Shown: positions 36,614 through 53,142 of the stretch, piece by piece | How positions within the stretch are numbered: the first letter of the stretch is position 1 | How the letters are laid out: each line of letters starts with the position of its first letter | From: Spirochaetia bacterium | GTDB taxonomy: Bacteria > Spirochaetota > Spirochaetia > CADAEX01 | Length of the DNA: 64,000 nucleotides | Assembly (NCBI GenBank): GCA_963662265.2 | Contig: CAXXHA010000032.1 | Coordinates: 112,144-176,143 of the forward strand | Direction of reading: 5' to 3' | The notes under the pieces: model-generated | Databases searched by the model: none | The model's input: the letters and a program-made list of their open reading frames with translations, nothing else | What the model was told of the DNA's origin: nothing | Translations under genes and position numbers: made by a program

Positions 36614-39073
36614 CTATTTCATATCAATTCCAAATTCAACTCGCCTGTTTTTCCACCAGATTGACTTGTCTTTTGTTGAAGTCACAGGTTTTTTCCCGCC
36701 GAAGAATTCAATTCTGATTCTGTCTTCAGGAATTCCCTCATCCATGAGTGCCTTCTTGACTGATAAGGCTCTTCTTTCTGTTAAAGGAATAAGTACTGTC
36801 TCCTCCCTTGCCTCTTTATTGCTTTTTGAACTGTGAAAAACATTAAGAGCATGACCTTCAAGCACTATAGTATAATCGGGATATTTTTTTGAAAGGGATG
36901 CAACCTTCCTTATCGACTTCATATTCTCATCTCCGGCTGATTTTCCCCTTGAATAGAGACTATGTTTGTACGCCGAGAAAATTATATTGGGAACTTTTAT
37001 GTAATACCTTCCGTTTACAAGTTCTGCAATTATATCGATTGTAAAATCACCTTCGCATACAGCTCTGTTTCCGTTCATATCAACAAGCTCAAGTGAAGCG
37101 TCAAATCTGCTGCCTGACTCAACTTCATCAGCTATATAGTCCTCTCCGTAAAGCACAATACCTTCATCAGAAAGTCCGCTGCCGTCAGCCTCATCCTCTT
37201 CCCCGCTTTCATCCTTAAGCTTCAGTATCCACTTATAAATACCGCTATCATCCTTAACATTTGGATCTATATAAACCTGGCCGTCAAGAACTTCTCCGTT
37301 AACTGCAAAAGGTGTTGCAGTTATTACAAGATCTGTTTCAGGAGGAGTAAGGTCGTAGAAGTATTTAAAGAAATGCTGTGATTTGCTTCCGTTTTCATAA
37401 GCTGCGGTAAATGATACGTTATAATCACCCTCTTCAGCCTCATCCCTGCTTCCGGGAATTATAATCATTTCAGGAAAAACACCTTCACCGGATTCTTCAT
37501 AAATAACATTACCGTCTGTATCACTTACCTTGAAAGACCACATTTCAATTCCGCCTGTTGAATCAGATTCGACTTTGAATGCAGCAATACCATCAATCTG
37601 TTTTTCAATCATTTCCGCGCCTGGAATATTAACAAGCTGGGCTTTCTTGTCAGCCCGGTCAATGGTCAGTTTCTTTTTTTCAGGCACATAGGGATTACCT
37701 GCAAGATCTTCAAAATATGTTTCAAGGTAGTAGTCGCCGTCAGCAAGCTCTTTTCCATCTTCATCAGTACCGTCCCAGACAATAAGAGAAGTTGTTTCCT
37801 CGCTTGTCATTTCACCTATTGAATTGCCATCGCTGTCAGTTATCTGCCCTTTCCATTTGACAATCTTGTTTGATTTCATAGAAATTTCAGTAGTATCCCT
37901 GTTTCCGCTTCCGTTAGGAGAAAATACAGGATTGCTTACCTTGAAATCAACAACAGGAGCAGTGGTATCCAGATACACAGTCTCTGTTTTCACAATCCTG
38001 GCACCGTTTTCATATTCGCTTGAAAAGCCCAGGGTATATGAACCCTGCGGAAGTTTTTCCCCCTGCTCTCCACGGCCGTCAATTACAGCCTCATAAATTC
38101 CAGGCTCTGCACCCTTGTCCGATAGGATCACATTGCCTTTTGAATCTGCCATTGAAACAGACCAGCCGACAAATCCTTCTTCGGTTTTCTGTCCGAATGT
38201 TGCTATTATAGTATCTTTATTCCCATCATTGTTCGGTGAAAAATATGTATCTGTAAGTTCAAAAACCACATCTGCAAGAGTTGTATCAAGGATAAATCCG
38301 GATAATGATTTTTCCTCCATTTTATTACCGGCAAGGTCTGTTGAATTAATTCTGTAACTGTATAATCCGTCAGCTGCAGGATTTCCGTTATTATCAAGCC
38401 CGTCCCATTCCACATTGGGAAGAGAAGTGTTTTCCCACCTGAAAGTCTTTACAACATTACTGTCCTCATCAAGCATCTCCCCTGTCCATAGGGATTCATC
38501 TGTGGATTTTTCCTGCTTTATAACAAGAACATCAAGATTTCCATCGTTATTCGGTGAAAAAATCACCTTGTCAGGTTTTACAAGTTCAACTGACGGGGGA
38601 GCAACATCAACAACAAAGTCATCAAGTGCAACATCGTCAATATTTCCTGATGAATCCTTGACCCAGAGTTCCACATTATAAATACCGTCAGGAACCTTGT
38701 TGCCTTCTGTATCAAACCCGTCCCATTTCACTGACTTTTCAAGTGTAAATTCTGAATATTTTGTAAATATCCTTATAAACCAGTTAATATCAGATTTTTC
38801 AGTTTCAATAACTTCCGTTATCACATCGCCTGATGAGTTTTTGATTCGGAGCCCGTATTCAGGTACATACCCCTTCTTGCTCTTAACATAAATCTTTACT
38901 TTGAAATCAAGTTCAGATGAATCCTGAACACCATTACCGTCAGGAGAAATATACTGTGTTCCCGAAGTAGCAACTTCAAGATCAGGAACTTCCTTGTTTC
39001 CTCCCGCGGAAATACTGAATGTCATAAAAATAAATAGACATAAAGCAATCACTATTATTCTGAAACTTTTCAA
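36614..39073 (-). CDS. Secreted FlgD-Ig-repeat protein with a C-terminal OmpA-like peptidoglycan-binding domain
   Basis: Signal peptide; repeated (I/F)SPNxDG..D and WDG.D..G....DG.Y motifs; C-terminal EGHA..LTERRA..WWKNRRVEF. Confidence 0.85.
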   Translation of the reverse strand: MKSFRIIVIALCLFIFMTFSISAGGNKEVPDLEVATSGTQYISPDGNGVQDSSELDFKVKIYVKSKKGYVPEYGLRIKNSSGDVITEVIETEKSDINWFIRIFTKYSEFTLEKSVKWDGFDTEGNKVPDGIYNVELWVKDSSGNIDDVALDDFVVDVAPPSVELVKPDKVIFSPNNDGNLDVLVIKQEKSTDESLWTGEMLDEDSNVVKTFRWENTSLPNVEWDGLDNNGNPAADGLYSYRINSTDLAGNKMEEKSLSGFILDTTLADVVFELTDTYFSPNNDGNKDTIIATFGQKTEEGFVGWSVSMADSKGNVILSDKGAEPGIYEAVIDGRGEQGEKLPQGSYTLGFSSEYENGARIVKTETVYLDTTAPVVDFKVSNPVFSPNGSGNRDTTEISMKSNKIVKWKGQITDSDGNSIGEMTSEETTSLIVWDGTDEDGKELADGDYYLETYFEDLAGNPYVPEKKKLTIDRADKKAQLVNIPGAEMIEKQIDGIAAFKVESDSTGGIEMWSFKVSDTDGNVIYEESGEGVFPEMIIIPGSRDEAEEGDYNVSFTAAYENGSKSQHFFKYFYDLTPPETDLVITATPFAVNGEVLDGQVYIDPNVKDDSGIYKWILKLKDESGEEDEADGSGLSDEGIVLYGEDYIADEVESGSRFDASLELVDMNGNRAVCEGDFTIDIIAELVNGRYYIKVPNIIFSAYKHSLYSRGKSAGDENMKSIRKVASLSKKYPDYTIVLEGHALNVFHSSKSNKEAREETVLIPLTERRALSVKKALMDEGIPEDRIRIEFFGGKKPVTSTKDKSIWWKNRRVEFGIDMK

Positions 39074-39332
39074 TATTTTAACCTCCCCCCTGTTTCAGGG
39101 TTTTGCTGTTAATGCCATTATAGCATGGTTTCCCTGTACAAAGGGCAAACCATAGAAAAACAACCGGAAAATAAAAAAGTTACTCACTTTTTTATTCAGT
39201 CATTAAAAAAATCACATATCTTCATTCATTTTACAAAAGTATAATAAATATACAGATATAATTCTATTCATTATTGTAATAAGTGAGGGCTCCAGGTTTT
39301 CAGAGGTTAGATAGATATAAAATTGCAGCTAA

Positions 39333-40295
39333 TCAATATTTAAATTCATATATATTACGATCAACAATGTTTATCAACTGTTTTCCTTCAATATATGCTT
39401 TAATGTTTTGTTCAATAATAGAAAGAGTTTTATTTAATGTGTGAGGAAGAAAATCATGCCCTGCAATATGAGGAGTTATTATTATGTTTTTAGTATTCCA
39501 TATTTTATGGTTACGAGGAAGAGGTTCATTTTCAAAAACATCTAATGCTGCTCCTGATATTTTATTGTTTTCAATCGCTTCACATAAAGCATTAATATCG
39601 AGAGTATTACCGCGGCCTACATTTATCAATACAGCATCCTGTTTAATTCTGGAAATCATTTCTTTATCCATAATATTTATTGTCTCTGGAGAAGACGGTA
39701 AAGACATGGAAACAATATCAGCACGATGTATAATTTTTGCCAAATCATTGAAAGAATACATCTCATCCGCATATTTATTGTTTTTATTAATAGACCTTCT
39801 AACACCAATAATGTGTACACCAAAAGCTTTAAGCATTTTTGCATACTGAGTTCCAATATCTCCCATGCCAAGTATCAAAACAGTAGCATCCTGAAGCATT
39901 TTTTCGTTGCCTTCATCATTCCATAAACAATTATTCTGGTTGTCCCTGTAAATATTCAGTTTTTTATACAGAGATAAAGTTAAAGCTAACATAAACTCTG
40001 ACTGGGCTTCCCCATAAGCACCGCTTGCATTAGTAACAATAACACTATCTTTCAGAATATTATCCTTAAGATATGCATCAGCGCCTGCAGTAATCAGTTG
40101 GATCCATTTCAGCTTTTCTGCGTGCTCCAATAATTCTAAAGGTGGATTCCCAATTATTATTTTCGAATTTGATATTTGATCGTGGTTTATATTGCAATCT
40201 GATGCAAACTCAAAATCTATATATTTTTCAAACTGAGAAAGCTTATTTTTCTGGGAAAGATCAAGAGGAATAATAACAAGAACTTTGGTTTTCAT
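39333..40295 (-). CDS. D-2-hydroxyacid dehydrogenase family
   Basis: TAGAD, TNASG, GMGDIG, INVGRG, LDVFENEPLP, ITPHIAG. Confidence 0.92.
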   Translation of the reverse strand: MKTKVLVIIPLDLSQKNKLSQFEKYIDFEFASDCNINHDQISNSKIIIGNPPLELLEHAEKLKWIQLITAGADAYLKDNILKDSVIVTNASGAYGEAQSEFMLALTLSLYKKLNIYRDNQNNCLWNDEGNEKMLQDATVLILGMGDIGTQYAKMLKAFGVHIIGVRRSINKNNKYADEMYSFNDLAKIIHRADIVSMSLPSSPETINIMDKEMISRIKQDAVLINVGRGNTLDINALCEAIENNKISGAALDVFENEPLPRNHKIWNTKNIIITPHIAGHDFLPHTLNKTLSIIEQNIKAYIEGKQLINIVDRNIYEFKY

Positions 40296-40343
40296 AACAA
40301 TCCTATGCAATATTTAATATTATTTCACATTAAAAATACTTAT

Positions 40344-41192
40344 CTACAATCCCAGATAATAACCTTTGTTAAGAAAATCTTCCATTTCCTTAAGTGTATC
40401 AATTGCTCTGGAATGATCAAGCTGTGCTATTGCTGCAGAAATATAATTTATCAGACACATGGGAGCAACATAGGAATTTTTGAATGAAATGCCGCCGACA
40501 CTGCATGGTAAAATGATATCACCGTAATTTTCTATATCTGAAATATTCTGACTTGTAAACAGAATAACCTTAACATTTCTTTTTCTTAGCCATAATATTA
40601 AATTTGCGGTTGTTTTCGAGTATCTTGGAAATAAAAAAGCTACACAAATATCCTGTTCATTACAGCCGATCAATTCTTCAGGAAAGATCATTCCGACAGA
40701 CTGTACTAACCTTACATTGGGTCTTATCTGACCAAGACGGGAGGTCATATAATGAGCTAAGGCAAAAGAACTTCTCATACCAAGAACATAAACATTTCTT
40801 GCATTACTTACTTCATCAATAGTAACAGATAAATCTTTTTGAGATATTTTTGTCATTGTAGTTGTAATATCGGCTATATCATTCTGCATAGTATCCATAA
40901 GTAACTGGTCAGGTGTCCCTGTTTCGATTTTGTTAATCAATCTCTCTGGCAGACTTGCTTTTGTAACCAGTCCTTTCTGGACCTCCTTCTGCATATCGGA
41001 ATAGCCATTATATCCCATCATTCTTGCAAAACGGATAATCGTAGTCGTACTTACACCGATTTTCATTGCAACATCATCTAGAGTGGAAAAGGCAAATTTA
41101 TCTGGATTATCAATAAAATAATTAGCTACTGTTTTTTGTGAATACGTAAGATCATTAAACCGCTCTGCAACTTTATTTGAAAAATCAGACAT
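40344..41192 (-). CDS. MurR/RpiR family regulator (HTH + SIS)
   Basis: LTYSQKTVANY, GVSTTTIIRFARMMGYNGYSDMQ, GMRSSF, FPRYS. Confidence 0.93.
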   Translation of the reverse strand: MSDFSNKVAERFNDLTYSQKTVANYFIDNPDKFAFSTLDDVAMKIGVSTTTIIRFARMMGYNGYSDMQKEVQKGLVTKASLPERLINKIETGTPDQLLMDTMQNDIADITTTMTKISQKDLSVTIDEVSNARNVYVLGMRSSFALAHYMTSRLGQIRPNVRLVQSVGMIFPEELIGCNEQDICVAFLFPRYSKTTANLILWLRKRNVKVILFTSQNISDIENYGDIILPCSVGGISFKNSYVAPMCLINYISAAIAQLDHSRAIDTLKEMEDFLNKGYYLGL

Positions 41193-41219
41193 TTTCTTCC
41201 CCTGCTTTAAACCATTTTT

Positions 41220-41258
41220 AAAAGTATGTATAAATAAGTTATTATTTATACATACTTT
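41220..41258. terminator. AT-rich hairpin between the enolase-like gene and rpiR
   Basis: aaagtatgtataaataa-gtta-ttatttatacatacttt perfect inverted repeat. Confidence 0.5.
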
Positions 41259-41292
41259 ATCAATATTTTCTTCAGTTAGCTACTAAATTATT

Positions 41293-42564
41293 TTAAAATC
41301 TTACAATACTGCTAATATCTGTCATCTGACAACCGGGGGTTTCATCACATGCTCTCATCAGAAAATTAAGTTTATCTATCCTCTCTCCCGACCGAGGTGC
41401 TCCATTCTTCTGAAAAGCAACTTCAAGACCGACAGAAATATCCATTACAATATCACCGACAACTCCTCCTGACCTTCCTGAAGGAACTGTAAACATATTG
41501 TGTTCATTTGCAATTTTATGTGTTTCAAGAGCCTCTGTTATAGTACCGACCTGATTTGGTTTCAGGACAAATCCTTCAGCTGCATTAGTTTCTATTGCCC
41601 TATAAAGCCTTTCTTTGTTGGATGCTATAAGATCATCACCAATAATAATTGTTCTTTCAAGTTCTCTAACAGCCTTAGTATAATTTCCCCAATCATTTTC
41701 ATCCAGAAGATCTTCTATAAAAACTATAGGGAACTGTTCTGTCAGTTTTTTTGTATAGTCAATTATTGTCTGGGCTCCAACCCTTTCATCCTTAAGCAGA
41801 TATGTGTTTGTTTTTGCATCATACATTTCACTTGAAGCACAATCAAGAGCAAATGCCACTTTATCATGATACCCGCATTCATCAACTGCATCCTGCATTA
41901 ATTGCAATGCAATTACAGGATCATTTGTTGGAGTTGCCCAGCCATAAGATCGGGCAACCTGAGGTGTTTTCCCCATATATTTTTCAATTATTACCCCAAG
42001 TTTACTAAAAACCTTTACAGCTATTTCAACAGCTTCATATATAGTATCAGCTTTATAGGGGACAATAAGGAATTCGTTAAAAGCAAGGGTAACATCCCCA
42101 TATTTACCGCCATTTATAACATTAAAAGATGGAACTGGAACTGTCCTGATATCTCTTCCGCAGAGATATCTATAAGGAGTCATTTTTGAAATCTGAGAAG
42201 CTGCTCTAAGTGCAGCTATAGAAGTACTGCAGATAGCATTTCCCCCAAGCACGCTTTTATCAGAGGTACCATCCAGTTCAATCATTTTTCTGTCAAGAGC
42301 TTCCTGGTCCTGAATATCCATACCTATCAATGCAGGAGCAATAATTTTCTTCACATTTTCAACTGCTTTATGAACACTTAAACCATCATACTCAGAAGGA
42401 TTATTATCTCTCAGGACAAATGATTCATATTTCCCGACAGAACTCCCTGTCGGAGAACTTCCATAACCCTTAAATCCATTTTCTGTAGTAATATCAACTT
42501 CAACCATAGGACGGCATTTACAATCTATTATCTGCCTCGCTGTTACATTTTTAATCTTTTCCAA
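41293..42564 (-). CDS. Divergent enolase paralogue (lacks the catalytic acid Glu)
   Basis: Full-length enolase fold: DCASSE, IED, GDD, LKPNQVG, GRS; but GDEGG is replaced by ARSYG, NGGxH by NGGKY, and SHRSGET by SGRSGGV. Confidence 0.88.
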   Translation of the reverse strand: MEKIKNVTARQIIDCKCRPMVEVDITTENGFKGYGSSPTGSSVGKYESFVLRDNNPSEYDGLSVHKAVENVKKIIAPALIGMDIQDQEALDRKMIELDGTSDKSVLGGNAICSTSIAALRAASQISKMTPYRYLCGRDIRTVPVPSFNVINGGKYGDVTLAFNEFLIVPYKADTIYEAVEIAVKVFSKLGVIIEKYMGKTPQVARSYGWATPTNDPVIALQLMQDAVDECGYHDKVAFALDCASSEMYDAKTNTYLLKDERVGAQTIIDYTKKLTEQFPIVFIEDLLDENDWGNYTKAVRELERTIIIGDDLIASNKERLYRAIETNAAEGFVLKPNQVGTITEALETHKIANEHNMFTVPSGRSGGVVGDIVMDISVGLEVAFQKNGAPRSGERIDKLNFLMRACDETPGCQMTDISSIVRF

Positions 42565-42585
42565 TCTATCACTCTCCTACTTAAT

Positions 42586-43987
42586 TTATTTTTCAGGTAC
42601 ATACATTATGTTAAAATCACAGAGGTTTGTTCCTGTATTCCCTGTGAAAACAGTATCTTCAAGTTCTACCAATGCTTCATAACAGGAATGCCCCCTGAGT
42701 GATGCATGTATATCAACATTTTTTTCCAAAGCTGTTTTATAAGTTGTTGAATCAGTTATTCCTCCAGCTATATCAGCTGTTCCATCAGTACCTTCAGAAT
42801 CTATAGATAAAAGGCATGCACCTTCTGTTTTTGCAGCTAAAAGGGCAAAACTCAAAGTTTCTTCCTGTCCCCGGCCCGCCATGGCCTTTAATGGTATTGT
42901 TATCCAGAATCTTTGTAGTTGCCTCACCTGATGAAAGAATTACACAGGGAGCCTTAACAGGATTTCCATATTCCTGTATTTCCCTTGCAATAGATGCAAA
43001 TATTGTACCTACATCCCTGGCTTCTCCCTCCAGAAATGAGGTAAGAATTACAGCATTAATACCCATATCCTCTGCAATATGTTTTGCATATATACATGAA
43101 TCAGGAAGTGTATTCAGAAGGTAATATGTGTTATCAGGGAATGCTTTTGGAGTTTCCCCTTCAGGACCAGCATTCATAAGGTAATCAACAACATTTTTAG
43201 GAAGCCTGTCAGCCACATCATAATCACGGATAACAGCTCTTGCATCATCAAGAGTAGTCATATCAGGCCCCATAGGTGTACTTTTATATGCTGCATATGG
43301 AATTCCAATATCGCCTGTTGCTGCAGATCCTACAGCATCACTTATCCCGAACCCTATCAGTTCAGCACCTCGTTTCTGTATCCTTTTAGCAAGCATTCCC
43401 CCGTTAAACTGGGATATATGTCTTCTTATGGAATTTATTTCATAAATATTGGCACCTGACTTAAGCATTACATCAGTCACTGCAATTTCATCATCCAGAG
43501 ATATTCCATCTATAGGACAGCTCATCAGGGCAGAACTGCCTCCGCTTATAACAACAATAAAAAGGTCATCAGGTCCTGAATTATCCACTATTTCAAGTAT
43601 TTTTTTGCAGGCATTATAGCCAGCTTCATTGGGAAGGGGATGCCCCCCCACATAAACTTCTGTTTTATTAAAAACATCTGTTTCTTCTGCGATTTTTACA
43701 ATAGCAATACCACGGGTAAGCTTATCCCCAAGAATCTCATCTACTGCCATTGCCATATGGTTACAGGCTTTCCCCGCACCCAGAAGATATATATTTTTCT
43801 TTTTTGAAAGGTCCCAGCTTTTTGTACCTATATGGAGAATATCTCCATCCAGATGCATGATGCTTTTAATCCTTTCTTTAGAATCAAGTTTCTGAAGCGT
43901 TTTTTCAGTAATGTCCAGTACTATCTCCCTGGATTTTTTATCTCCATGTGATAATATCTGTTCTCTGTTGCGTATTTTGACCGACAT
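42586..43987 (-). CDS. MOFRL/DUF4147 glycerate 2-kinase family; +1 frameshift near 42870 (probable sequencing error)
   Basis: GAGKA, GHPLP, ISGGSSAL, GEAT..GHGGPG|QE..DSEGTDG..AGG..TGNTGTNLCD. The two ORFs join if one G is removed from ccgggg. Confidence 0.85.
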
Positions 43988-44101
43988 TTCAAACTCCTTC
44001 GGTTTATTTATCATGTTTTGTATATATTACTATATGTTGCAGTATTAACTACTTTGATATAAAACATATTAACTATACTTCTATATCATACTATGGTTAT
44101 T

Positions 44102-45397
44102 TTACGTTTCTGACAGTTCAGGCAAGCTCTTCTGAGACTGCGGATAAAATAGAATCTTCGGATTGTCCTTAGCAGACAAATCTACCGCTTTATTAATCAT
44201 ATCATTAACATTTTCAGCCGGAATCATGTGCAGTTTTTCTATTTCAGATTTTGAAATATTGGGAGAATATACAACTATATTAACATTTTTCTTAAGTATC
44301 TTTGAAAGCAATAATGAATGGTCCATTTGGATCCTGTAATTATCTTTCAGATAATCAATAACCCCCTCAAGAGAAGGAGACTGTTCAAATGGCTTCATCA
44401 TATCTGGTGAATTTATCCCCTCCCGACATTCACAGTAAAGAGCAACTGTAATTGAATCATCGAGTATATCTGTAAGTGCTATAAGAGCCTTTACTGACTG
44501 ATAAAAATCAATATTAAGAGGACTACCAGGTGTTGTTACAATGATATCAGGTTTCTTGAAACTGTTCTTGCAATACTTTCTAAGATAATTCACCGCTGTC
44601 TTATGTGATAAAAGCATTGGCCCTGAAAAAACTGCGGCTGTCTGGTTAACAGAATTCTGAACAAAATTAACACAAAAGTCGAGACGGAAAAACTCTGCTG
44701 TTTCTATCATGTCATTACTTACAGGATTTCCCTCCAGACAACCAGGTACGGCCTTTTCCGAAGAAATCATTTTAACTGAATGATTTGTAAGAATAGTTTT
44801 TTCAGAAGAAATTCCAGGCAATACAGATTTTCTACCTCCTGAAAAACCTGCGAATTCATGCGGTTCCACTTTTCCAATTGAAACATGGATATCACATTCA
44901 TAAGCCCTTTTGTTAACCTCAACAGGAGTACCAAATGAGGTTATACCCAGGTTTATCAGATTACTGCTATCAAAAGGGGTATGGTTTTCTATTCTCATCT
45001 TGGAATAAAGTTCCGGCCCGATTATTTTCAGCATTTCCTCTTCTGTTGCCTCCCTGTGGACACCAAGAGCAACAATAAAAAGTATATCTGACAATGTTAT
45101 TCCACCGTCTGTCAACTCCTTTACTATTATTTCAGCAGCGCTTTGTGTCGGTACATTTCTGGTTGCATCTGAGACAATTATACATGCACTTTTTGCATTA
45201 CGTTCAAGTACAATATCCTTAAGCCGCTTCCCCCCCAGAGGGTTATAAATACTGTTTAAAAATTCCTTTTCATTTATTGCAGTAATATCGCTATTTCCTG
45301 TTACCCCTGCAAAACATACTTCAGGAATTTCTATTGAGATTTTTTCCACTTCATCCTTATAATGAACTTTGTTATCAGCAATAGAAATAGAATACAT
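44102..45397 (-). CDS. LarA-family nickel-pincer-dependent alpha-hydroxyacid racemase/epimerase
   Basis: SDATR, ALGVHR, PHEFAGFSGGRKS, NH and FYQSVK motifs. Confidence 0.9.
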   Translation of the reverse strand: MYSISIADNKVHYKDEVEKISIEIPEVCFAGVTGNSDITAINEKEFLNSIYNPLGGKRLKDIVLERNAKSACIIVSDATRNVPTQSAAEIIVKELTDGGITLSDILFIVALGVHREATEEEMLKIIGPELYSKMRIENHTPFDSSNLINLGITSFGTPVEVNKRAYECDIHVSIGKVEPHEFAGFSGGRKSVLPGISSEKTILTNHSVKMISSEKAVPGCLEGNPVSNDMIETAEFFRLDFCVNFVQNSVNQTAAVFSGPMLLSHKTAVNYLRKYCKNSFKKPDIIVTTPGSPLNIDFYQSVKALIALTDILDDSITVALYCECREGINSPDMMKPFEQSPSLEGVIDYLKDNYRIQMDHSLLLSKILKKNVNIVVYSPNISKSEIEKLHMIPAENVNDMINKAVDLSAKDNPKILFYPQSQKSLPELSET

Positions 45398-45425
45398 TCT
45401 CTAAATACCTCAATATCCTGTTCTA

Positions 45426-45460
45426 AAAATGTGCTCTGATAAATCAGAGCACATTTTTTT
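45426..45460. terminator. Intrinsic terminator/hairpin between dctQ and the larA-like gene
   Basis: aaaaatgtgctctgat-aa-atcagagcacattttt. Confidence 0.6.
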
Positions 45461-45474
45461 AATTATAGTATCTG

Positions 45475-46023
45475 CTAAACATCCTCAGTAATAAGACCGG
45501 TATCTTCAATTTCATGATCAGATATACCAACAACGGCGGCTTCTTCGCCAGGTCTGAATAAATCAAAGAGAATATTTCTCAATTCATACAAAGACATCAC
45601 AGCAAAAGAAACAGAAACTGCAGCATATTTTACAGCATAAGGAAATCCCAGAGCGGGAGTTACCCTGCTACCTGATCTGATTATCATAAGTATACCGATG
45701 TAAAAAACAACAACAGATGCCAGAAACATGATAATCTGAACACTGATGTTCATTATATGTTCCACTTTTTTGGGGAACATCTGCTTGAATACAACTATGC
45801 TTACATGTTCTCTACGAACAGCAATATAGGAGGCGCTCAAGAGACAAAACCATACCAGCAGTATTTTTAACAATTCTTCTGACCAGGTCAGCGAACTGTT
45901 TAATACATAACGGCTGAATATATGGAGCAGAGCAATTGCCAGCATACATATTCCTATAGCTATTATCATAATCATAACTATTCTGCCTGTCTTTCTAACA
46001 ACATTATTAAGAGTGTCTAACAT
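45475..46023 (-). CDS. dctQ: TRAP transporter small permease
   Basis: SRYVLNSSLTWSEEL, HVSI, TPALG; 4 TM segments. Confidence 0.92.
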   Translation of the reverse strand: MLDTLNNVVRKTGRIVMIMIIAIGICMLAIALLHIFSRYVLNSSLTWSEELLKILLVWFCLLSASYIAVRREHVSIVVFKQMFPKKVEHIMNISVQIIMFLASVVVFYIGILMIIRSGSRVTPALGFPYAVKYAAVSVSFAVMSLYELRNILFDLFRPGEEAAVVGISDHEIEDTGLITEDV

Positions 46024-46046
46024 AATACTCCTTCCCGATTATTTAA

Positions 46047-47123
46047 TTATTTTACACTTTTAGCTGTGTCTGCTTTTACAGCTTCAATCCCTGCGATGAA
46101 TTCATCTACAAATTCACTTCCAATTTCTTCTTTAACCTTATCAGAAACAACTGGCTGAGAAACTTTTTTTATAGCTTCAAGATTTGCCAGTGTCAAAGAA
46201 TTGACCTTCATACCTTTATTGGTGAGCTGTTCTACAATAAGTGCTTCCCTGTTCGCATTGATAAAACGGCTGTAATTCTGTCCGAGAATTGCACCTTTTT
46301 CAATGATTTTCTGATATTCTCCTGGAAGAGAGTTAAACCATTTAAGATTTGTCACAAGTGGCATAGCATCATAAATATGGTTGGTAAGAGATACATAATC
46401 CTGAACTTCATACATGTTTACTTCCCATATATTTGCAAGAGGATTTTCCTGTCCATCTACAATTTTCTGTGACATTGACAAATAAAGTTCAGACCAGGGA
46501 ACAGGTGTCGGATTTGCTCCGAGTGCAGAAAAATTTGCCATGTGCATTGGAGCTTCCATTGTTCTTATTTTAAGTCCTTTAAAATCATCTATTGACTTGA
46601 TAGGTCTTACATTATTTGTCGCATGCCGAAAACCATTTTCCATATAAGCAAGACCTTTTAAACCTGATTCTTCGAGTGTATCCATCAGATCTGAACCTAC
46701 TTTACTGTCAAAAGTAGCCCACGCCTGCTGGTAGTTATCAAAAAGAAAGGGAATATCAAGTACTGCAAATTTTTTATCAAAAGTTGTAATAGGTCCGATT
46801 GATGCAGTAGCCATTTCAAGAGTACCATTCTGAACCTGTTCAACTGATTCGATTTCAGCTCCCAGCTGGCTGTTGGGATAAATTTTGACCTCAACCTTTC
46901 CATCTGTTTTGTCTTCAATATATTCTTTCATAACACCCAGTCCTAGAGTCTGCGGGTGATCAAGAGAATTGCAAGCAGAAATTCTGATTTCAAAGGATCC
47001 AAGATCTTCAGCAGATCCTGCTTCTGCTTTTTTAGAATTTCCACCGCATGCTATTATTGAACACATAACAAGCAGCACCATTATCACCTTAAGTGATTTC
47101 ATAATAAAGTTTTGTTTTTTCAT
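46047..47123 (-). CDS. dctP: TRAP transporter substrate-binding lipoprotein
   Basis: Lipobox IIAC; YPNSQLG, ENGFRH, KGLKIRT (carboxylate-binding Arg), LGANPTP, VDGQENP. Confidence 0.94.
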   Translation of the reverse strand: MKKQNFIMKSLKVIMVLLVMCSIIACGGNSKKAEAGSAEDLGSFEIRISACNSLDHPQTLGLGVMKEYIEDKTDGKVEVKIYPNSQLGAEIESVEQVQNGTLEMATASIGPITTFDKKFAVLDIPFLFDNYQQAWATFDSKVGSDLMDTLEESGLKGLAYMENGFRHATNNVRPIKSIDDFKGLKIRTMEAPMHMANFSALGANPTPVPWSELYLSMSQKIVDGQENPLANIWEVNMYEVQDYVSLTNHIYDAMPLVTNLKWFNSLPGEYQKIIEKGAILGQNYSRFINANREALIVEQLTNKGMKVNSLTLANLEAIKKVSQPVVSDKVKEEIGSEFVDEFIAGIEAVKADTAKSVK

Positions 47124-47146
47124 TAGGTAATTCTCCTTTTTTTTTA

Positions 47147-48421
47147 TTAATAACCCATCATTTTTGGCAGAAACAGACTTATTTCTGGAACAAAAGTAAC
47201 GAGTAACAAAACACTAAAAGTTGTCAAGATAAACGGGATTGCCTCTTTGACAGTATCTTCGACCCTGACATTAGCAATAGGACTTGTAACGAACAATGTA
47301 ATTCCGAATGGAGGAGTTGCAAGTCCAACTACAAGATTGACACATATAACTACTGCAATGTGCAGCGGATGAATACCAAGCTTCCAGGCAATAGGAGCAA
47401 TTATGGGAGCAAGTATTACAATAGATGCATAATCATCCATAAAACATCCTGTTATCAGGAGAAGAATATTTACCATTAAAAGGAACATCCATGGGGGTAT
47501 TGAAGACAATGGCTCAATTACATAAGAGAGAACCTGCTCATTTGCAATTGCCCAGGCCATAACACTTCCGGCACCAGCTAGAAGGAGCACAAGACCCGAT
47601 GTTAAGGCGGCTTCCTTGAATATTTCAGGAATATCTTTAAGCTTAACAGACTTATTTACAAAGAAACCAAGAAATGCACTATATAAAACAGCCACTGCAG
47701 AGGCCTCTGTAATACTGAAGACTCCACCGAATATCCCACCAAGAATTATTACAGGAAGCATCAGTGCAGGAAGAGCTTTTTTTGCAGCAACAATTTTTTC
47801 TTTTAATGAAGTTTTAGGGAAAGAGGGATAATCTCTTTTTTTGGATACAAAGTGTGCAACAAGTATCTGCCCAAAAGCTATCATTATTGCAGGGACAATT
47901 GCAGTCAGAAAAACACCAGCTATTGAGGTATTACCAACAGCAATACAGTAAAGAATCATCAACACACTAGGAGGCATAATCGGACCTAAAAGTGATGCAG
48001 AAGCCATTACTCCTGATGCAAAAGCTGGGTTATATCCTTCTTTTTTCATCATCGGAATAAGAAAAACACCAAGAGATGCAGCAGCAGCAACAGCCAGACC
48101 AACAATTGATCCCATGAGTAAACTTGCCCCTATTGTCACAATTGCAACAGCACCTTTTGCCCTTCCAAAAAATACATTGACAAAATCAATAAGATTTTCT
48201 AACAGCTGCCCTTTAAGCATCAACTGCCCGGTTATTACAAAAAATGGAACTGCCAGAAAAGAAAAACTACTCATCCCCTCATACATTTTCTGACCTACAA
48301 GCATAATATCAAATCCGCTTGCTATCATGTAAACAAGAGAACTACTGATCAAGTTATAAGCTATTGGCAATCCACAGATCATAAGTACAAAGAAACATAT
48401 GATCATCAATAATAATTCCAT
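47147..48421 (-). CDS. dctM: TRAP transporter large permease
   Basis: FLAVPFF, IMPPS, GGVFSITEASA, GLATPPFG. Confidence 0.94.
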   Translation of the reverse strand: MELLLMIICFFVLMICGLPIAYNLISSSLVYMIASGFDIMLVGQKMYEGMSSFSFLAVPFFVITGQLMLKGQLLENLIDFVNVFFGRAKGAVAIVTIGASLLMGSIVGLAVAAAASLGVFLIPMMKKEGYNPAFASGVMASASLLGPIMPPSVLMILYCIAVGNTSIAGVFLTAIVPAIMIAFGQILVAHFVSKKRDYPSFPKTSLKEKIVAAKKALPALMLPVIILGGIFGGVFSITEASAVAVLYSAFLGFFVNKSVKLKDIPEIFKEAALTSGLVLLLAGAGSVMAWAIANEQVLSYVIEPLSSIPPWMFLLMVNILLLITGCFMDDYASIVILAPIIAPIAWKLGIHPLHIAVVICVNLVVGLATPPFGITLFVTSPIANVRVEDTVKEAIPFILTTFSVLLLVTFVPEISLFLPKMMGY

Positions 48422-48498
48422 AAAAAACCTTCCCCCCTTTCTAAGATTAGTTTTACCCTACCCCTGCTTTACATCAGTAAAACAGTCAATATAAATTT

Positions 48499-49632
48499 CT
48501 ATTTCCAGAATGCTTCTTCCCAGAGCAGGAGCTTCTGTCCTATTCCCTTTTCCAAAGCTTTTTTGTATATATCATAACCCCAGGCCACATCAAAAACTGC
48601 CATTCCACAGGCAACAAAAATTATTGTCTCATCATCGGAATTTCTGCCTTCTTTCTCTTTATTAACAATATCACCAAGCCCTGTAGACTCTTTGAGTGGG
48701 GGCAGTTTTCCATCATCAATAAGTGTATATATTGGTCCGCCTATGACTCCGCTGTAATACCCGGCTTTATCACCAGAAGCAACTGCTTCTTCAACATATG
48801 CCTCATGAAGAGGAACATGATCATATACAATTTTGCTTTCTTTCCACAGAGAATCATTTCCTTTTGCAGGTCCTGATAACAGGATAGTGCTTCCTTTTTT
48901 TACCCATGAAGAATCAATATGAAGAGGTTTCAGCCTTGAAGCAGCAACAGTCACAACATCCCCTTCTCTAACAGCTTCTTCTGCTGTTTCAACTGTATAA
49001 CCTTCTATTCCATATTCTTCTCTTGCCCAGTCAACCAGGTTCTGTGCCTTTTCCTGAAAGAGATCGAAACAAACAATTTTTTTTACATTATCAAGCTGAG
49101 ATAAAACAGCTCTTGTGCATGATTTATTTATAGGACCACATCCGATAACTGAACAGACTTCAGATTTTTTTCTAACAAGATGTCGTGTTGCAACGCCAGG
49201 AACTGCTCCTGTCCGCATAGCACTAATCAGGTTTGCTGACATGAAACTCAAAGGCTCTCCTGTATCCTTGTCATTCAAAAGTACAGTAAGAACTGAACGG
49301 GGCAACCCTTTTTCAGGATTTGCGGCATTTGATCCATACCATTTCACTCCGCATACATCAAACCTTCCTCCAAGATAGGCAGGCATTGCAACAAAACGTC
49401 TGTCAGGACCGGCTACCGGCATATTTGGAAATATTGTTTCTTTTGGAAAAACAAGCCCCATTCCATGACTGTTGTGATTACTTCCACCCATCAGATAATC
49501 ACCTTTACCAAGCAATGAAAATGTTTCTTCAGCTACATCTACACAGCTTTCCATTTCCAGTGCACCAGCCTCAATCATGTCTTTTTCAGAAAGATATAAA
49601 AAATCAGTTTTTTTTCCACCCATTTCCTTCAT
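48499..49632 (-). CDS. OCD/mu-crystallin family protein ('tyramine oxidase subunit B'-like)
   Basis: FLYLSEKDMI, NSHG..FP..FPNMPVAGPDRRFVAMPAYLGGRF..GVKWYGSN..GLPRS, ANLISAMRTGAVPG. Confidence 0.85.
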   Translation of the reverse strand: MKEMGGKKTDFLYLSEKDMIEAGALEMESCVDVAEETFSLLGKGDYLMGGSNHNSHGMGLVFPKETIFPNMPVAGPDRRFVAMPAYLGGRFDVCGVKWYGSNAANPEKGLPRSVLTVLLNDKDTGEPLSFMSANLISAMRTGAVPGVATRHLVRKKSEVCSVIGCGPINKSCTRAVLSQLDNVKKIVCFDLFQEKAQNLVDWAREEYGIEGYTVETAEEAVREGDVVTVAASRLKPLHIDSSWVKKGSTILLSGPAKGNDSLWKESKIVYDHVPLHEAYVEEAVASGDKAGYYSGVIGGPIYTLIDDGKLPPLKESTGLGDIVNKEKEGRNSDDETIIFVACGMAVFDVAWGYDIYKKALEKGIGQKLLLWEEAFWK

Positions 49633-49884
49633 TTACTCCTTGTATAAAACTTCCAAAAACAGTTATTAGTTCTGATAGCAAACTTTTTTAACTAGCATTA
49701 TAAATATTTTAAAAGGTGTGTTTTATATAATACAAAAAGTATATATCACTACATTTCAGATGTCAAGAAAATCTTTCATTGATAATAAAGGAAAAAAATC
49801 TTCATTTTTATTTGAAACTGTATTATAAAAAGTCTATATTATTGATTCTATTATTTACTTAAGCTGTACAGGGGAATTAACCTT

Positions 49885-50844
49885 ATGATAAATAATTTTT
49901 CGATACTGACTGACTCCCTAAAATCAACATACAAAGTATGTTTGACACTTTTCAGGATAATTATCCCGGTCAGTATTCTTATGAAATTAATTACAGAATT
50001 GGGTCTGATAACACATATAGGAGAACTGCTGTCTCCCCTAATGTCGCTTGCAGGACTTCCGGGAAGTTACGGCCTTGTATGGGCTGCCGGAATCTGTACA
50101 AACATCTATGCAGCAATGCTTGTATTCTCAAAAGTCATATTGAATAATCCTGTAAACACTGCTCAAGTTTCTGTTCTCGGGATCATGCTTCTTGTTGCCC
50201 ATGCACTTCCCATAGAGGCAACTGTTGCCAGAAAAGCCGGTATAAAACTGAGGATCTCCCTGATATTCAGACTGGCATCTGCTCTGCTGTTCGGAATCAT
50301 ACTCAACCTGATATTTGAGACAACAGGACTTTTTCAGGGCTCCCCCAATATTATCTGGTATCCGAAAAACAACGAAACAGGCTATATCGCATGGGCAGTC
50401 AGGGAAATTCTTAATTATGTGAAAATAACAGGTATTATTTTCACTCTCATTACCCTTATGAACATACTGAAAGCCACAGGAGTCATGAATGTTCTCATAC
50501 GCCTGCTCCACCCGGTGCTGAAGGGACTCGGAATCGGTAAAAAAGCAATACCGATAACAATAATAGGGATTGTACTGGGTTATGCATATGGAGGAGGACT
50601 TATTATTGCCGAGGCCAATTCAGGTAGAGTCGGAAAAAAAGACCTTTTCTACACAATAATATTCCTTTCCCTCTGTCACAGCCTGATAGAAGACAGCCTG
50701 CTGCTGATTTCTCTGGGTGCTGATGCTGTTATTGTCTTTCTCGGCAGGTTTATTTTTTCATACATTACCTGCACATTAATTGTCCTGGCAACAAGAAACA
50801 TGAATGAGGAAAAATTTAAAAAACTGTTCTTCAGACCTCTTTAG
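49885..50844 (+). CDS. Nucleoside-recognition (gate) domain membrane protein
   Basis: PLMSLAGLPG, AHALPIE, YGGGLII, LCHSLIED. Confidence 0.78.
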   Translation: MINNFSILTDSLKSTYKVCLTLFRIIIPVSILMKLITELGLITHIGELLSPLMSLAGLPGSYGLVWAAGICTNIYAAMLVFSKVILNNPVNTAQVSVLGIMLLVAHALPIEATVARKAGIKLRISLIFRLASALLFGIILNLIFETTGLFQGSPNIIWYPKNNETGYIAWAVREILNYVKITGIIFTLITLMNILKATGVMNVLIRLLHPVLKGLGIGKKAIPITIIGIVLGYAYGGGLIIAEANSGRVGKKDLFYTIIFLSLCHSLIEDSLLLISLGADAVIVFLGRFIFSYITCTLIVLATRNMNEEKFKKLFFRPL

Positions 50845-51099: not shown

Positions 51100-53142
51100 A
51101 TGTTTAAAAATCTAAAAATAGCAACAAAACTGTTGCTGTTCGGTATTTCAGTCATGACAATACCACTTCTAACTGTTGGAATATCTTCAATATCAATTGC
51201 CGGAAATGCCCTTACACGATCAACAGATGAGCAGTTACTGACAAGAGCTAACGAACTTGCCCTTCTTATTGATAATGTACTGGCCGATGAGATAAAGACA
51301 GCAAAAAGCTGGTCAATCCTTGATGTTACTGTTAACGCATTGGATTCGTCAACAATAATGGAGACTGATGATGTAAATAACAGGATAAGTGCTCTTAATA
51401 ATACATTTACCAATATTCAGAATACAGAAGGGCTTGGTGAAAATTATCAGGTAATTATTGCTACAGATACTTCAGGAATAATTATTGCAGCCAGTCAGGA
51501 AAATTATCTGGGTGTATCTGTCTCGGACAGGGGATATATAAAGGATGCTCTCCAGGGAAAAGTAAATTTGGGAGCAGTTGGATTAAACAAGGTAACAGGA
51601 GATCCGTTTATCCCTATTGGAATACCTGTTTATTCATCTGATGGAAGGATTACAGGTGCGCTGGCAACCATTATTGATATTTTATTTATCAATAAAATAT
51701 CAAATGATATAACAATAGGCGAAACAGGATATCCATACATCATAGATTCTACAGGACTGATTCTTGCTCATCCGAATCATGATCATATTATGAAAACAAA
51801 CCTTTCAAAGACAGTGGGAATGGAACAGGTCATTGCAAACATGGTATCAGGGAAAAGAGCTGTCGATAAATATGTATTTGAAGGAATTCCAAAAAGCTGC
51901 GGCTATGCACCGGTTGAACTGACAGGATGGAGTGTGGGACTCACCCTTCCTGATGAGGAATTTCTGGCACCTATTTTCCTGGTACGTAATATTGTAGCAT
52001 CTGTCGGGTTAACATTTCTGATTCTCGGCATAGCTATCTCACTTCTGTTTGCAAGAAGTATCTCTTCAAGGCTCAAAAAAAGTGTGAATTTTGCATCCAA
52101 AATAGCATCAGGAGACCTTACTGCTGATATTGATATTAACCAGAAGGATGAAGTAGGTCAGCTTGCAGCATCCCTTCAAGATATGTCACAGAACCTGAAC
52201 AACATTTTGAAGGATATAAACAGTGCATCGAACCAGGTTGCTTCCGGAGCCCAGCAGATATCTTCAACATCCCAGGAGATCTCCTCCGGCGCAACAGAGC
52301 AGGCATCAAGCACAGAAGAAGTATCAAGCGCTATGGAACAGCTTGCAGCCAATATACATCAGAACACTGAAAGTTCACAATCGGCTGATGAAATTGCCAA
52401 AAAAATTACAACAGAAGCAACACAGGGGGGAGAGGCTGTAAATCAGACTGTTTCCGCAATGAAGAGTATTGCAGAAAGAATATCTGTTATTGAGGATATT
52501 GCAAGAAACACTAATATGCTGGCTCTGAATGCAGCAATTGAAGCTGCAAGAGCGGGAGATGCGGGTAAAGGATTTGCTGTTGTTGCATCTGAAGTAAGAA
52601 AGCTTGCAGAGAACTCGGGGAATGCGGCTGCAGAGATAACAGAGATAGCAGGAAGCAGTGTTCAGGCAGCGGAAAAAGCCGGCAACTTAATCAATGAACT
52701 TGTACCCCAGATACAGAAAACTGCAGAGCTTGTTCAGGAAATAAATATTTCAAGCCTTGAACAGACAAAAGGCGCAGAACAGATAAACCAGGCCCTCCAG
52801 CAGCTTGATACAGTAATACAGCAGAATGCATCATCATCGGAAGAAATGGCATCCATGGCGGAAGAACTGAGCAGCCAGTCAGAATTGATGCAGAGCAATG
52901 TCGAGTATTTCAAACTCAAAGAATCTGAAATGTTTGCCAGGGTCCCGGAAGAAAAGGCAAAATCAGCTGAGAAAAAAAAGAAAATTGCCAGGAAAACTGA
53001 AAATACTGGAAAAGAAAAGAAAACTGAAACTGCGGATAATTTTGTAAAAACAGAAAATGATGAGAAAAAAGAAACTCAAAGAGAATATACCGCTGATCTT
53101 TCAGATGATTTGAGTGATCTTGACGGCTTCAGTGAATTCTGA
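51100..53142 (+). CDS. Methyl-accepting chemotaxis protein (dCache-HAMP-MCP)
   Basis: Two TMs, [14 protein letters not shown] Cache, [43 protein letters not shown]; C-terminal GFSEF pentapeptide. Confidence 0.96.

Follow-up and report, generated by a model that had tools for sequence, protein, structure and literature searches.

A horizontally acquired island in a Spirochaetia genome carries a conserved trio of a MOFRL kinase, an enolase paralogue and an OCD-like enzyme

Introduction

The present analysis deals with a stretch of 64,000 nucleotides from a Spirochaetia bacterium (assembly GCA_963662265.2, contig CAXXHA010000032.1, positions 112,144 to 176,143 of the forward strand), referred to below as the window, and more precisely with the nine co-oriented minus-strand open reading frames (ORFs) that occupy exactly its positions 39333-49632. 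This island was acquired horizontally. Three of its genes form the working core and encode a MOFRL-type kinase, a paralogue of enolase with an altered catalytic set and a dehydrogenase of the OCD/SbnB-like type; the six other genes encode a TRAP transporter, a LarA homologue, an RpiR-type regulator and a 2-hydroxyacid dehydrogenase. Every protein family present here is known already, and so is the logic of a kinase step followed by an enolase-type elimination. What appears to be new is the conserved and widely transferred module itself, in which both enzymes lack hallmark residues of their parental activities and have gained a near-constant OCD-like partner. We lean, with some reserve, towards a catabolic function in which a 2-O-phosphorylation would be followed by an enolase-type beta-elimination of a C3 group other than hydroxyl, yielding phosphoenolpyruvate (PEP) or a close analogue.

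The conserved trio

An alignment-based scan over one genome per species found relatives of the enolase paralogue in 292 genomes; the best 80 loci were analysed, co-occurrence being scored by tblastn with the nine window proteins. The carriers span at least six phyla (Bacillota, Synergistota, Planctomycetota, Thermodesulfobacteriota, Actinomycetota and Pseudomonadota), and the trio proteins retain 57-85% identity across them. In all 80 loci the gene immediately upstream of the enolase paralogue is that of the kinase, of which contig ends leave only the C-terminal part in two. The OCD-like gene is found in 73 loci, and five of the seven that lack it are cut close to the kinase.

The six other genes are far less constant. 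TRAP orthologues (DctM at 65% identity or more) stand beside the trio in 12 of the 80 loci, a LarA orthologue (at least 43% identity) in 12 and an RpiR relative in 17, and an orthologue of the 2-hydroxyacid dehydrogenase (at least 50% identity) was detected in a single one, a Clostridia metagenome-assembled genome (MAG) designated L003. The same L003 is the only locus with all nine genes. The combination of OCD-like enzyme, TRAP system, LarA, kinase and paralogue occurs nine times, in six Bacillota, two Planctomycetota and one member of the Synergistaceae. Other lineages have amino-acid ABC, sugar ABC, MFS, NCS1 or Na:alanine transporters in place of TRAP. The working core is thus the MOFRL kinase together with the enolase paralogue and the OCD/SbnB-like dehydrogenase; from this comparison of loci, the TRAP, LarA, RpiR and 2-hydroxyacid dehydrogenase genes look like interchangeable accessory feeder parts, which would adapt the trio to its host. 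The original prediction had singled out the kinase, the enolase and the OCD-like protein (under the name TynB) as a possible unit, which the neighbourhood comparison bears out, and it had also envisaged conservation of the whole gene set, which holds for the trio and not for the nine genes.

The enolase paralogue

The paralogue (41293-42564, minus strand) contains the Enolase_N and Enolase_C domains and scores 367.4 bits against the TIGR01060 profile, the cut-off of which is 300; the housekeeping enolase of the same host scores 723.4 bits. This housekeeping copy is 76% identical to that of one Spirochaetota MAG, a weak hint that the host belongs to the same phylum. Both kinds coexist in each of the six genomes tested, host included, with 351-397 bits for the paralogues and 654-723 bits for the canonical enolases. 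A quick IQ-TREE run on 36 sequences of each kind separates the paralogues from the canonical enolases by a branch with 100% support and a length of about 5.4 changes per column, and the internal branches among paralogues are short despite their spread over six phyla.

The residue roles used here are those of yeast enolase, in which Glu211 is the general acid for the leaving hydroxyl. The three metal carboxylates (Asp241, Glu284 and Asp310), the base Lys335, the carboxylate-binding Lys386, the phosphate-binding Arg364 and also Glu164 are kept in all 80 loci, as is the second-metal Ser42 in 79 of them. The general acid is not: in a HMMER alignment to solved enolases, and likewise with MAFFT, Ser206 of the window protein takes the place of the Glu of GDEGG, and the column holds Ser in 79 loci and Ala in the remaining one, so that the wording "acid-less enolase" of the original prediction proved apt. 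Further replacements affect the His of the SHRSGE motif (Gly363, 80 of 80), the His of the GGSHA loop (position 155; Tyr in 74 loci, Asn in five, Gly in one), the Gln preceding Glu164 (Asn163, 80 of 80) and two Glu residues, now Gly367 and Val50. In total, 31 positions are fixed differently between the paralogues and the canonical group, and 74 are fixed alike. The gained Tyr207 is a Phe in two loci; since Phe, Asn or Gly occur naturally at one or the other of the two positions where a Tyr was gained, neither Tyr is likely to be an obligatory acid.

What emerges from these alignments is an active site of which one half, predicted to hold the 2-phosphoacid and the metals, is kept along with the proton-abstracting Lys, the half facing the C3 hydroxyl appearing to be rebuilt with smaller, uncharged residues. 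Such a pattern is that expected of a new function. Public records label the paralogue "enolase" or "phosphopyruvate hydratase", a label which is probably wrong.

The MOFRL kinase

The kinase gene (42586-44014, minus strand) is read in the assembly as a 406-residue ORF (42794-44014), in which the DUF4147 domain is recognized, and an overlapping ORF of 113 residues in another frame (42586-42927), which carries the MOFRL half. However, the frameshift is an assembly error, because the contigs of all four public runs compared, which come from two samples and two studies, lack the extra base: they have one base fewer at 42869 and are otherwise identical over 42300-44200. The gene is most likely whole and about 467 residues long, as is the intact orthologue of L003 (8579-9982, 467 residues); another intact orthologue (L037, 8517-9995) contains both DUF4147 and MOFRL. 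The same assembly also splits a resident MOFRL kinase gene (G000:C32:48484-49219) and a diaminopropionate ammonia-lyase gene (G000:C1:186708-187833) into overlapping frames, which suggests that it carries single-base indel errors.

The kinases of the island type carry the motif G[HR]GGP[GSA][QH]E in place of the canonical GGRNQE in each of the 78 loci where the column is readable, the Arg being lost in all 78. Against the glycerate 2-kinase equivalogs they score 142.9-175.6 bits, below the cut-offs of 550 and 670, a test that discriminates poorly, as the resident host kinase falls below them as well (200.8 bits). This second MOFRL kinase of the host has the canonical-type motif GKGGRNQE and is 29% identical to the island-type kinase of L003. 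The original prediction thus had the family right, and had missed the motif change and the apparent break in the gene. The resident kinase lies at G000:C32:46984-50520 (locus L195), beside a sucrose-phosphorylase-like gene and a phosphofructokinase gene, an arrangement which may represent a glycerate route of the glucosylglycerate type.

The OCD-like enzyme and the accessory genes

The third member of the trio (48499-49632, minus strand) is an NAD(P)-dependent enzyme of the OCD/mu-crystallin family (PF02423, 195.1 bits). It belongs to the PRK06199 subfamily, named "tyramine oxidase subunit B", with 450.6 bits against NF004848 for a cut-off of 362. Its closest solved relative is SbnB (4m54, 7.6e-40), CmnK following at 2.1e-7; it nevertheless falls below the SbnB equivalog TIGR03944 (183.6 vs 326.9 bits). 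Among the weaker matches, the named OCD-family members are imine reductases, namely pyrroline-2-carboxylate reductase and iminosuccinate reductase.

The homologue of LarA, the nickel-pincer 2-hydroxyacid racemase/epimerase, is encoded at 44102-45397 (minus strand) and contains the Lar_N and LarA_C domains. It lies below all curated cut-offs for LarA homologues, the best being that of the malate racemase LarAH6 (311.6 vs 500), and below that of the lactate racemase equivalog (292.9 vs 460). Six columns of solved LarA (His, His, Lys, His, Gln and Lys) are conserved in it, with catalytic and cofactor roles that are presumably those of the L. plantarum enzyme. The larB, larE and larC genes stand together on another host contig (G000:C23:25421-28417), far from the island; the cofactor machinery is therefore resident and the island LarA acquired.

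The TRAP set is complete, with the genes for the large permease DctM (47147-48421; TIGR00786, 366 bits vs 268), the solute-binding protein DctP (46047-47123; family profile match, lipoprotein-type signal in the translation) and the small permease DctQ (45475-46023; PF04290, 86.9 bits) lying together on the minus strand. The closest solved chain to DctP is 4p47 (9.6e-70), which is described in PMC11668362 as crystallised without ligand. The last two genes, also on the minus strand, encode a regulator of the RpiR/MurR family (40344-41192), with HTH_6 and SIS domains, and a D-isomer-specific 2-hydroxyacid dehydrogenase (39333-40310), which matches family profiles and reaches no equivalog cut-off.

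Horizontal acquisition

The region is a horizontally acquired island, since it is absent in relatives, its flanks are adjacent there and its nearest relatives are found in Clostridia MAGs. A segment of about 10.7 kb (approximately 39195-49947) has no syntenic counterpart in the two same-genus genomes, where the genes that flank it in the window, an OmpA-like gene on the left (36614-39073) and a Gate-domain gene on the right (49885-50844), are adjacent, with only about 164 and 257 bp between them. The term "island" used in the original prediction is thus literally true, the insertion being precise with respect to these two genomes. The enolase paralogue was missing from all 40 relatives searched (two congeneric genomes, 17 others from the family and 21 from the class) at a threshold of E<=1e-120. 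The best relatives of all nine genes are found in L003, at 54-85% identity, and the paralogue clusters in the quick tree with those of L003 and L004 with 98% support, its nearest relatives being Clostridia MAGs. Neither integrase, transposase or tRNA genes at the island joints nor a flanking direct repeat could be detected in the ORF and profile listing and by repeat search.

Mobility of the trio is also visible elsewhere. The conjugative plasmids of Brucella (Ochrobactrum) anthropi (NC_009669.1) and Agrobacterium cucumeris (NZ_CP080389.1) carry the same trio island of about 20 kb, some proteins of which share identical accessions; the trio module therefore travels on plasmids.

Genes around the trio in other lineages

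The genes that accompany the trio vary with the lineage. Burkholderiaceae and Pseudomonas loci contain a MocR regulator, two proline-racemase-family genes, a D-amino-acid-oxidase-type gene, a shikimate-dehydrogenase-like reductase, a xylose-isomerase-like barrel and an amino-acid ABC system. A dehydrogenase of the Glu/Leu/Phe/Val type follows immediately after the paralogue in Lachnospiraceae (12 of the 80 loci). On the B. anthropi and A. cucumeris plasmids, the trio is preceded by hydantoinase A/B, an amino-acid ABC system, an SDR protein and an IlvD-type dehydratase, and followed by a cupin, a Glu/Leu/Phe/Val-type dehydrogenase, a tautomerase and pyruvate carboxylase. Rhizobium tumorigenes has a sugar ABC system with the trio. 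In an Acetivibrionales MAG (L005, 2729-8263), the trio is clustered with an NCS1 permease, a PreT/PreA dihydropyrimidine dehydrogenase, a dihydropyrimidinase and an M20 hydrolase, a gene content which suggests that a breakdown product of 5-substituted pyrimidines could feed it. Creatininase and agmatinase-like genes are found at L009, and sarcosine-dehydrogenase-type genes at L010, L021 and L076. The L045 operon, which has no OCD-like gene, combines a 2-hydroxyacid dehydrogenase, an RraA-like aldolase and a molybdenum aldehyde oxidoreductase with the kinase and the paralogue.

Counted over the 80 loci, MocR and proline-racemase-family genes are the most frequent of these neighbours (21 each), followed by the D-amino-acid-oxidase type (17), M20 deacylases (10), hydantoinase B (7) and A (4), and the sarcosine/dimethylglycine-dehydrogenase type (3); amino-acid ABC systems were seen in single loci or annotated records. 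A pyruvate kinase gene belongs to the operon in three loci of three lineages (L011, L013 and L020). The scan of approximately 190 neighbour proteins and cluster representatives brought up neither a sulfite exporter nor a sulfite reductase or dehydrogenase, nor any sulfoquinovose gene.

Proposed pathway

The reaction steps, their order and the substrate are all inferred. In the pathway that we tentatively favour, the TRAP system would import a carboxylate, and the OCD/SbnB-like NAD(P) enzyme would act at a C-alpha-N bond, either converting a 2-amino acid into a 2-oxoacid or cleaving an N-alkyl link. The 2-hydroxyacid dehydrogenase would then reduce the 2-oxoacid to a 2-hydroxyacid, and the LarA homologue, with a nickel-pincer cofactor supplied by the resident larBCE genes, would invert C2 and thus make both epimers usable. 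The MOFRL kinase would phosphorylate the 2-OH of this glycerate analogue. The product could be held by the paralogue in the way 2-phosphoglycerate is held by enolase, through two Mg sites, Arg364 and Lys386; Lys335 would take the C2 proton, and a C3 substituent needing no general acid, hence not hydroxide, would be expelled to give PEP or a close analogue. Pyruvate kinase would recover the ATP, and the RpiR protein might sense a phosphorylated intermediate. The simplest reading of the kinase and the paralogue is that of a glycerate 2-kinase/enolase pair that may have been duplicated and re-tuned.

Several observations argue for this scheme. The paralogue is not redundant, because a canonical enolase is present in six of six genomes and a canonical-type MOFRL kinase in the host. 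PEP or pyruvate is proposed as the product because of the pyruvate kinase gene in three of the 80 operons and of pyruvate carboxylase in the two alphaproteobacterial plasmid islands. The best reading is still the one put forward in the original prediction, in which a 2-OH is phosphorylated and an enolase-like elimination then leads to PEP. The order of conversions given there (amino acid or opine, oxoacid, hydroxyacid, phosphoacid, PEP) would be plausible. The substrate is probably, judging from gene context, a three-carbon acid whose C3 or C2 bears nitrogen; isoserine, 2,3-diaminopropionate and an N-(2-carboxy-2-hydroxyethyl) amine are examples. A nitrogen leaving group is indeed ranked above sulfonate or thiol because the neighbours are mostly enzymes and transporters of small nitrogen compounds, none being devoted to sulfite. 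Among the 3-substituted lactates initially listed as candidates, the 3-amino and N-linked ones are thus indirectly supported by the neighbours and the 3-sulfo one is left without such support.

Other observations weigh against this scheme. The paralogue is still above the curated enolase cut-off (367 vs 300 bits), which is compatible with a working enolase. The replacements of Glu by Ser206, Gly367 and Val50 take away negative charge, a change that would be as favourable to an anionic C3 group as to an ammonium, if not more so. Within the scheme, the step assigned to the OCD-like enzyme is the least secure, and this enzyme could act after the paralogue instead of before it. The host already has a diaminopropionate ammonia-lyase gene (the one split in the assembly), so that the trio is not needed there for diaminopropionate. 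The L045 operon resembles a branch of the non-phosphorylative Entner-Doudoroff pathway that ends in plain glycerate. Lastly, the transporters beside the trio are very diverse, which is more readily explained by a hub intermediate than by a single external substrate of its own; this variety suggests that the trio may serve such an intermediate rather than a single nutrient.

A more ambitious extension of the scheme is conceivable, and we regard it as doubtful. The paralogue would then be the first member of enolase proper with a different reaction, namely a lyase that forms PEP by loss of ammonia or an amine from a 3-amino (or 3-N-substituted) 2-phosphopropanoate, itself supplied by the dedicated kinase. 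Together with the OCD-like enzyme, it would form a hitherto unrecognised hub through which compounds of the isoserine/diaminopropionate type reach PEP in gut, soil and plant-associated bacteria, such compounds arising for instance when pyrimidines, hydantoins, guanidino acids or glycation adducts are broken down.

The possibility that the trio stands in for diaminopropionate ammonia-lyase in the reductive urate pathway, which 10.1101/2025.05.19.654654 and 10.1101/2025.04.24.650524 describe, found no support in this host, whose genome has SsnA, YgeY and DpaL genes. These markers of the recently described pathway of anaerobes are located at G000:C3:122340-123656 (SsnA, 568 bits), C22:10648-11820 (YgeY, 479 bits) and C1:186708-187833 (DpaL).

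Alternative readings

The alternative that survives best, though unlikely, is an ordinary serine/glycerate branch. Hydroxypyruvate would come from the OCD-like enzyme or from neighbouring oxidases and be reduced to D-glycerate, LarA would racemise L-glycerate, the kinase would form 2-phosphoglycerate, and the paralogue would simply be a second, divergent but working enolase. The two enzymes do derive from glycerate 2-kinase and from enolase, and the score of the paralogue clears the TIGR01060 cut-off. The L045 operon, with its aldehyde oxidoreductase and aldolase, resembles a glyceraldehyde-to-PEP branch; the neighbours that would produce glycine or serine (sarcosine-dehydrogenase type, serine-hydroxymethyltransferase-like and creatinine-route enzymes) fit a serine hub, and a pyruvate kinase in the operon fits as well. 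However, the Glu that protonates the hydroxyl is Ser or Ala in all 80 loci and its partner His is Gly in all of them, the Arg of GGRNQE is lost in 78 of 78 kinases, and the functions concerned are already covered by a canonical enolase in the six genomes tested and by a canonical-type MOFRL kinase in the host. The xylose-isomerase-like neighbour, considered as a possible hydroxypyruvate isomerase, was rejected as such for want of an NCBIfam match.

Still less probable is an activated dehydroxylation, in which the kinase would phosphorylate the carboxylate-adjacent hydroxyl of a hydroxy-amino acid (3-hydroxyaspartate or hydroxyproline-type), the paralogue would generate an enamine or imine and the OCD-like enzyme would reduce it to an amino acid; in a variant, the paralogue would be a 2-phosphoacid epimerase or tautomerase. 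This proposal ties the OCD-like enzyme to the product of the paralogue, which would account for its being found in 73 of 80 loci. The weaker named OCD-family matches are imine reductases. In Burkholderiaceae and Pseudomonas the trio has genes of the proline-racemase family and of the D-amino-acid-oxidase type on its flanks, but most Bacillota loci have the trio without any proline-type genes. The best LarA match is a malate racemase and the TRAP system is of the dicarboxylate type, which would also be in line with it. On the other hand, the retention of Arg364 and of the second-metal Ser42 favours a 2-phospho substrate and elimination at C3 rather than elimination of phosphate, and the pyruvate kinase or pyruvate carboxylase genes of some operons point to PEP or pyruvate.

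A sulfonate route, leading from cysteate or 3-sulfolactate to (2R)-2-phospho-3-sulfolactate, from which the paralogue would release sulfite and PEP in the reverse of the coenzyme M enzyme ComA, has several points in its favour (sulfite leaves without an acid, and the lost acidic residues would suit an extra anion; 4p47, the closest solved relative of DctP, is also given in PMC11668362 as the closest solved relative of the isethionate-binding IseP; two Desulfovibrionaceae, L012 and L015, carry the module; and a D-cysteate-sulfo-lyase-like pyridoxal-phosphate enzyme, below its cut-off, lies near one plasmid island), but it is very improbable, given that the neighbour scan yielded none of the sulfite or sulfoquinovose genes looked for whereas nitrogen-related ones recur, and that the literature searched on phosphosulfolactate with kinase, enolase and sulfite yielded only coenzyme M biosynthesis.

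Relation to known systems

The closest known counterpart of the kinase and the paralogue is the glycerate 2-kinase (MOFRL class II) and enolase pair of the serine, tartrate and non-phosphorylative Entner-Doudoroff routes, with the same families acting in the same order and encoded by adjacent genes. The likeness to this glycerate-to-PEP branch extends to the metal, base and phosphate residues of enolase and to the pyruvate kinase sometimes found in the operon. The differences lie in the enolase Glu and His and in the GGRNQE motif of the kinase, changed in every member examined, as well as in the nearly constant OCD-like partner (73 of 80) and in the presence of canonical counterparts of both enzymes in the host.

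SbnB and CmnK, which are NAD+-dependent OCD enzymes releasing L-2,3-diaminopropionate, share the fold family of the island OCD-like protein and presumably its NAD-dependent chemistry at the C-alpha-N bond; unlike SbnB, the island protein stays under the equivalog cut-off, has no SbnA partner and stands in a catabolic setting. Similarly, the LarA homologue has in common with the LarA racemases (lactate racemase and the malate racemase Mar2) both domains, the catalytic and cofactor columns and the cofactor genes in the genome, and differs from them in being below every curated cut-off (at best 311.6 vs 500).

Methylaspartate ammonia-lyase and ComA combine Mg-stabilised enolate chemistry with the elimination or addition of ammonia or sulfite, and they need no Glu acid. 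They belong to other subgroups or folds, their kinship with the paralogue being no closer than the superfamily. Enolase proper is not known so far to include enzymes with a second reaction. No paper on the trio was found in the literature searched, about 1.7 million PubMed Central articles and subscription-only papers lying outside its coverage. With its acid-less paralogue, altered kinase and OCD partner, and its transfer across at least six phyla, the trio is a clean and directly testable target for the discovery of enzyme function. Should the product be PEP, the module would give Lachnospiraceae, Synergistaceae, Burkholderiaceae and rhizobia an ATP-neutral means of feeding small acids of an unrecognised class into their central metabolism.

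Organization of the island and flanking genes

The genes are transcribed in the order OCD-like enzyme, DctM, DctP, DctQ, LarA, kinase, enolase paralogue, RpiR and 2-hydroxyacid dehydrogenase. The GC content falls from 0.409 on the promoter-proximal side (48500-49499) to 0.305 at the distal end (39000-39999). The ORF coordinates and profile matches agree with the nine co-oriented genes and the families named in the original prediction, which had also rightly described the distal end as richer in AT.

A promoter-like site, TTGACA-17-TATACT, matches the consensus at 11 of 12 positions upstream of the first gene (49738-49766, minus strand); it is a consensus match only, and the total number of such sites in the region is not above that of shuffled controls. 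Two perfect inverted repeats were found within the operon. The first one, of 16 nucleotides, lies in the gap between the DctQ and LarA genes (45425-45458) and has the appearance of a terminator, with 15 pairs and T-runs on both sides. This hairpin is possibly an internal terminator, an attenuator or an operator, and might set different expression levels for the TRAP half of the operon and for the half that starts with LarA. The second one, of 17 nucleotides with a spacer of four, is located between the paralogue and RpiR genes (41221-41258) and is a candidate operator. Exact copies of the 16-nucleotide half-site are confined, within the window, to its two arms, and six matches to this half-site with at most three mismatches are observed there, for 1.63 expected.

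Two of the genes outside the island deserve a brief description. The gene at 36614-39073 encodes a protein of 819 residues with FlgD-Ig-like, Big and CHU_C/T9SS-like repeats and a C-terminal OmpA domain; it weakly matches the Leptospira adhesin Lsa66 and is conserved in the same-genus genomes. On the other side, a methyl-accepting chemotaxis protein of the dCache-HAMP type is encoded at 51100-53142. The DNA of its signalling domain matches dozens of sites in the same genus, and the protein hence belongs to a large family of paralogues.

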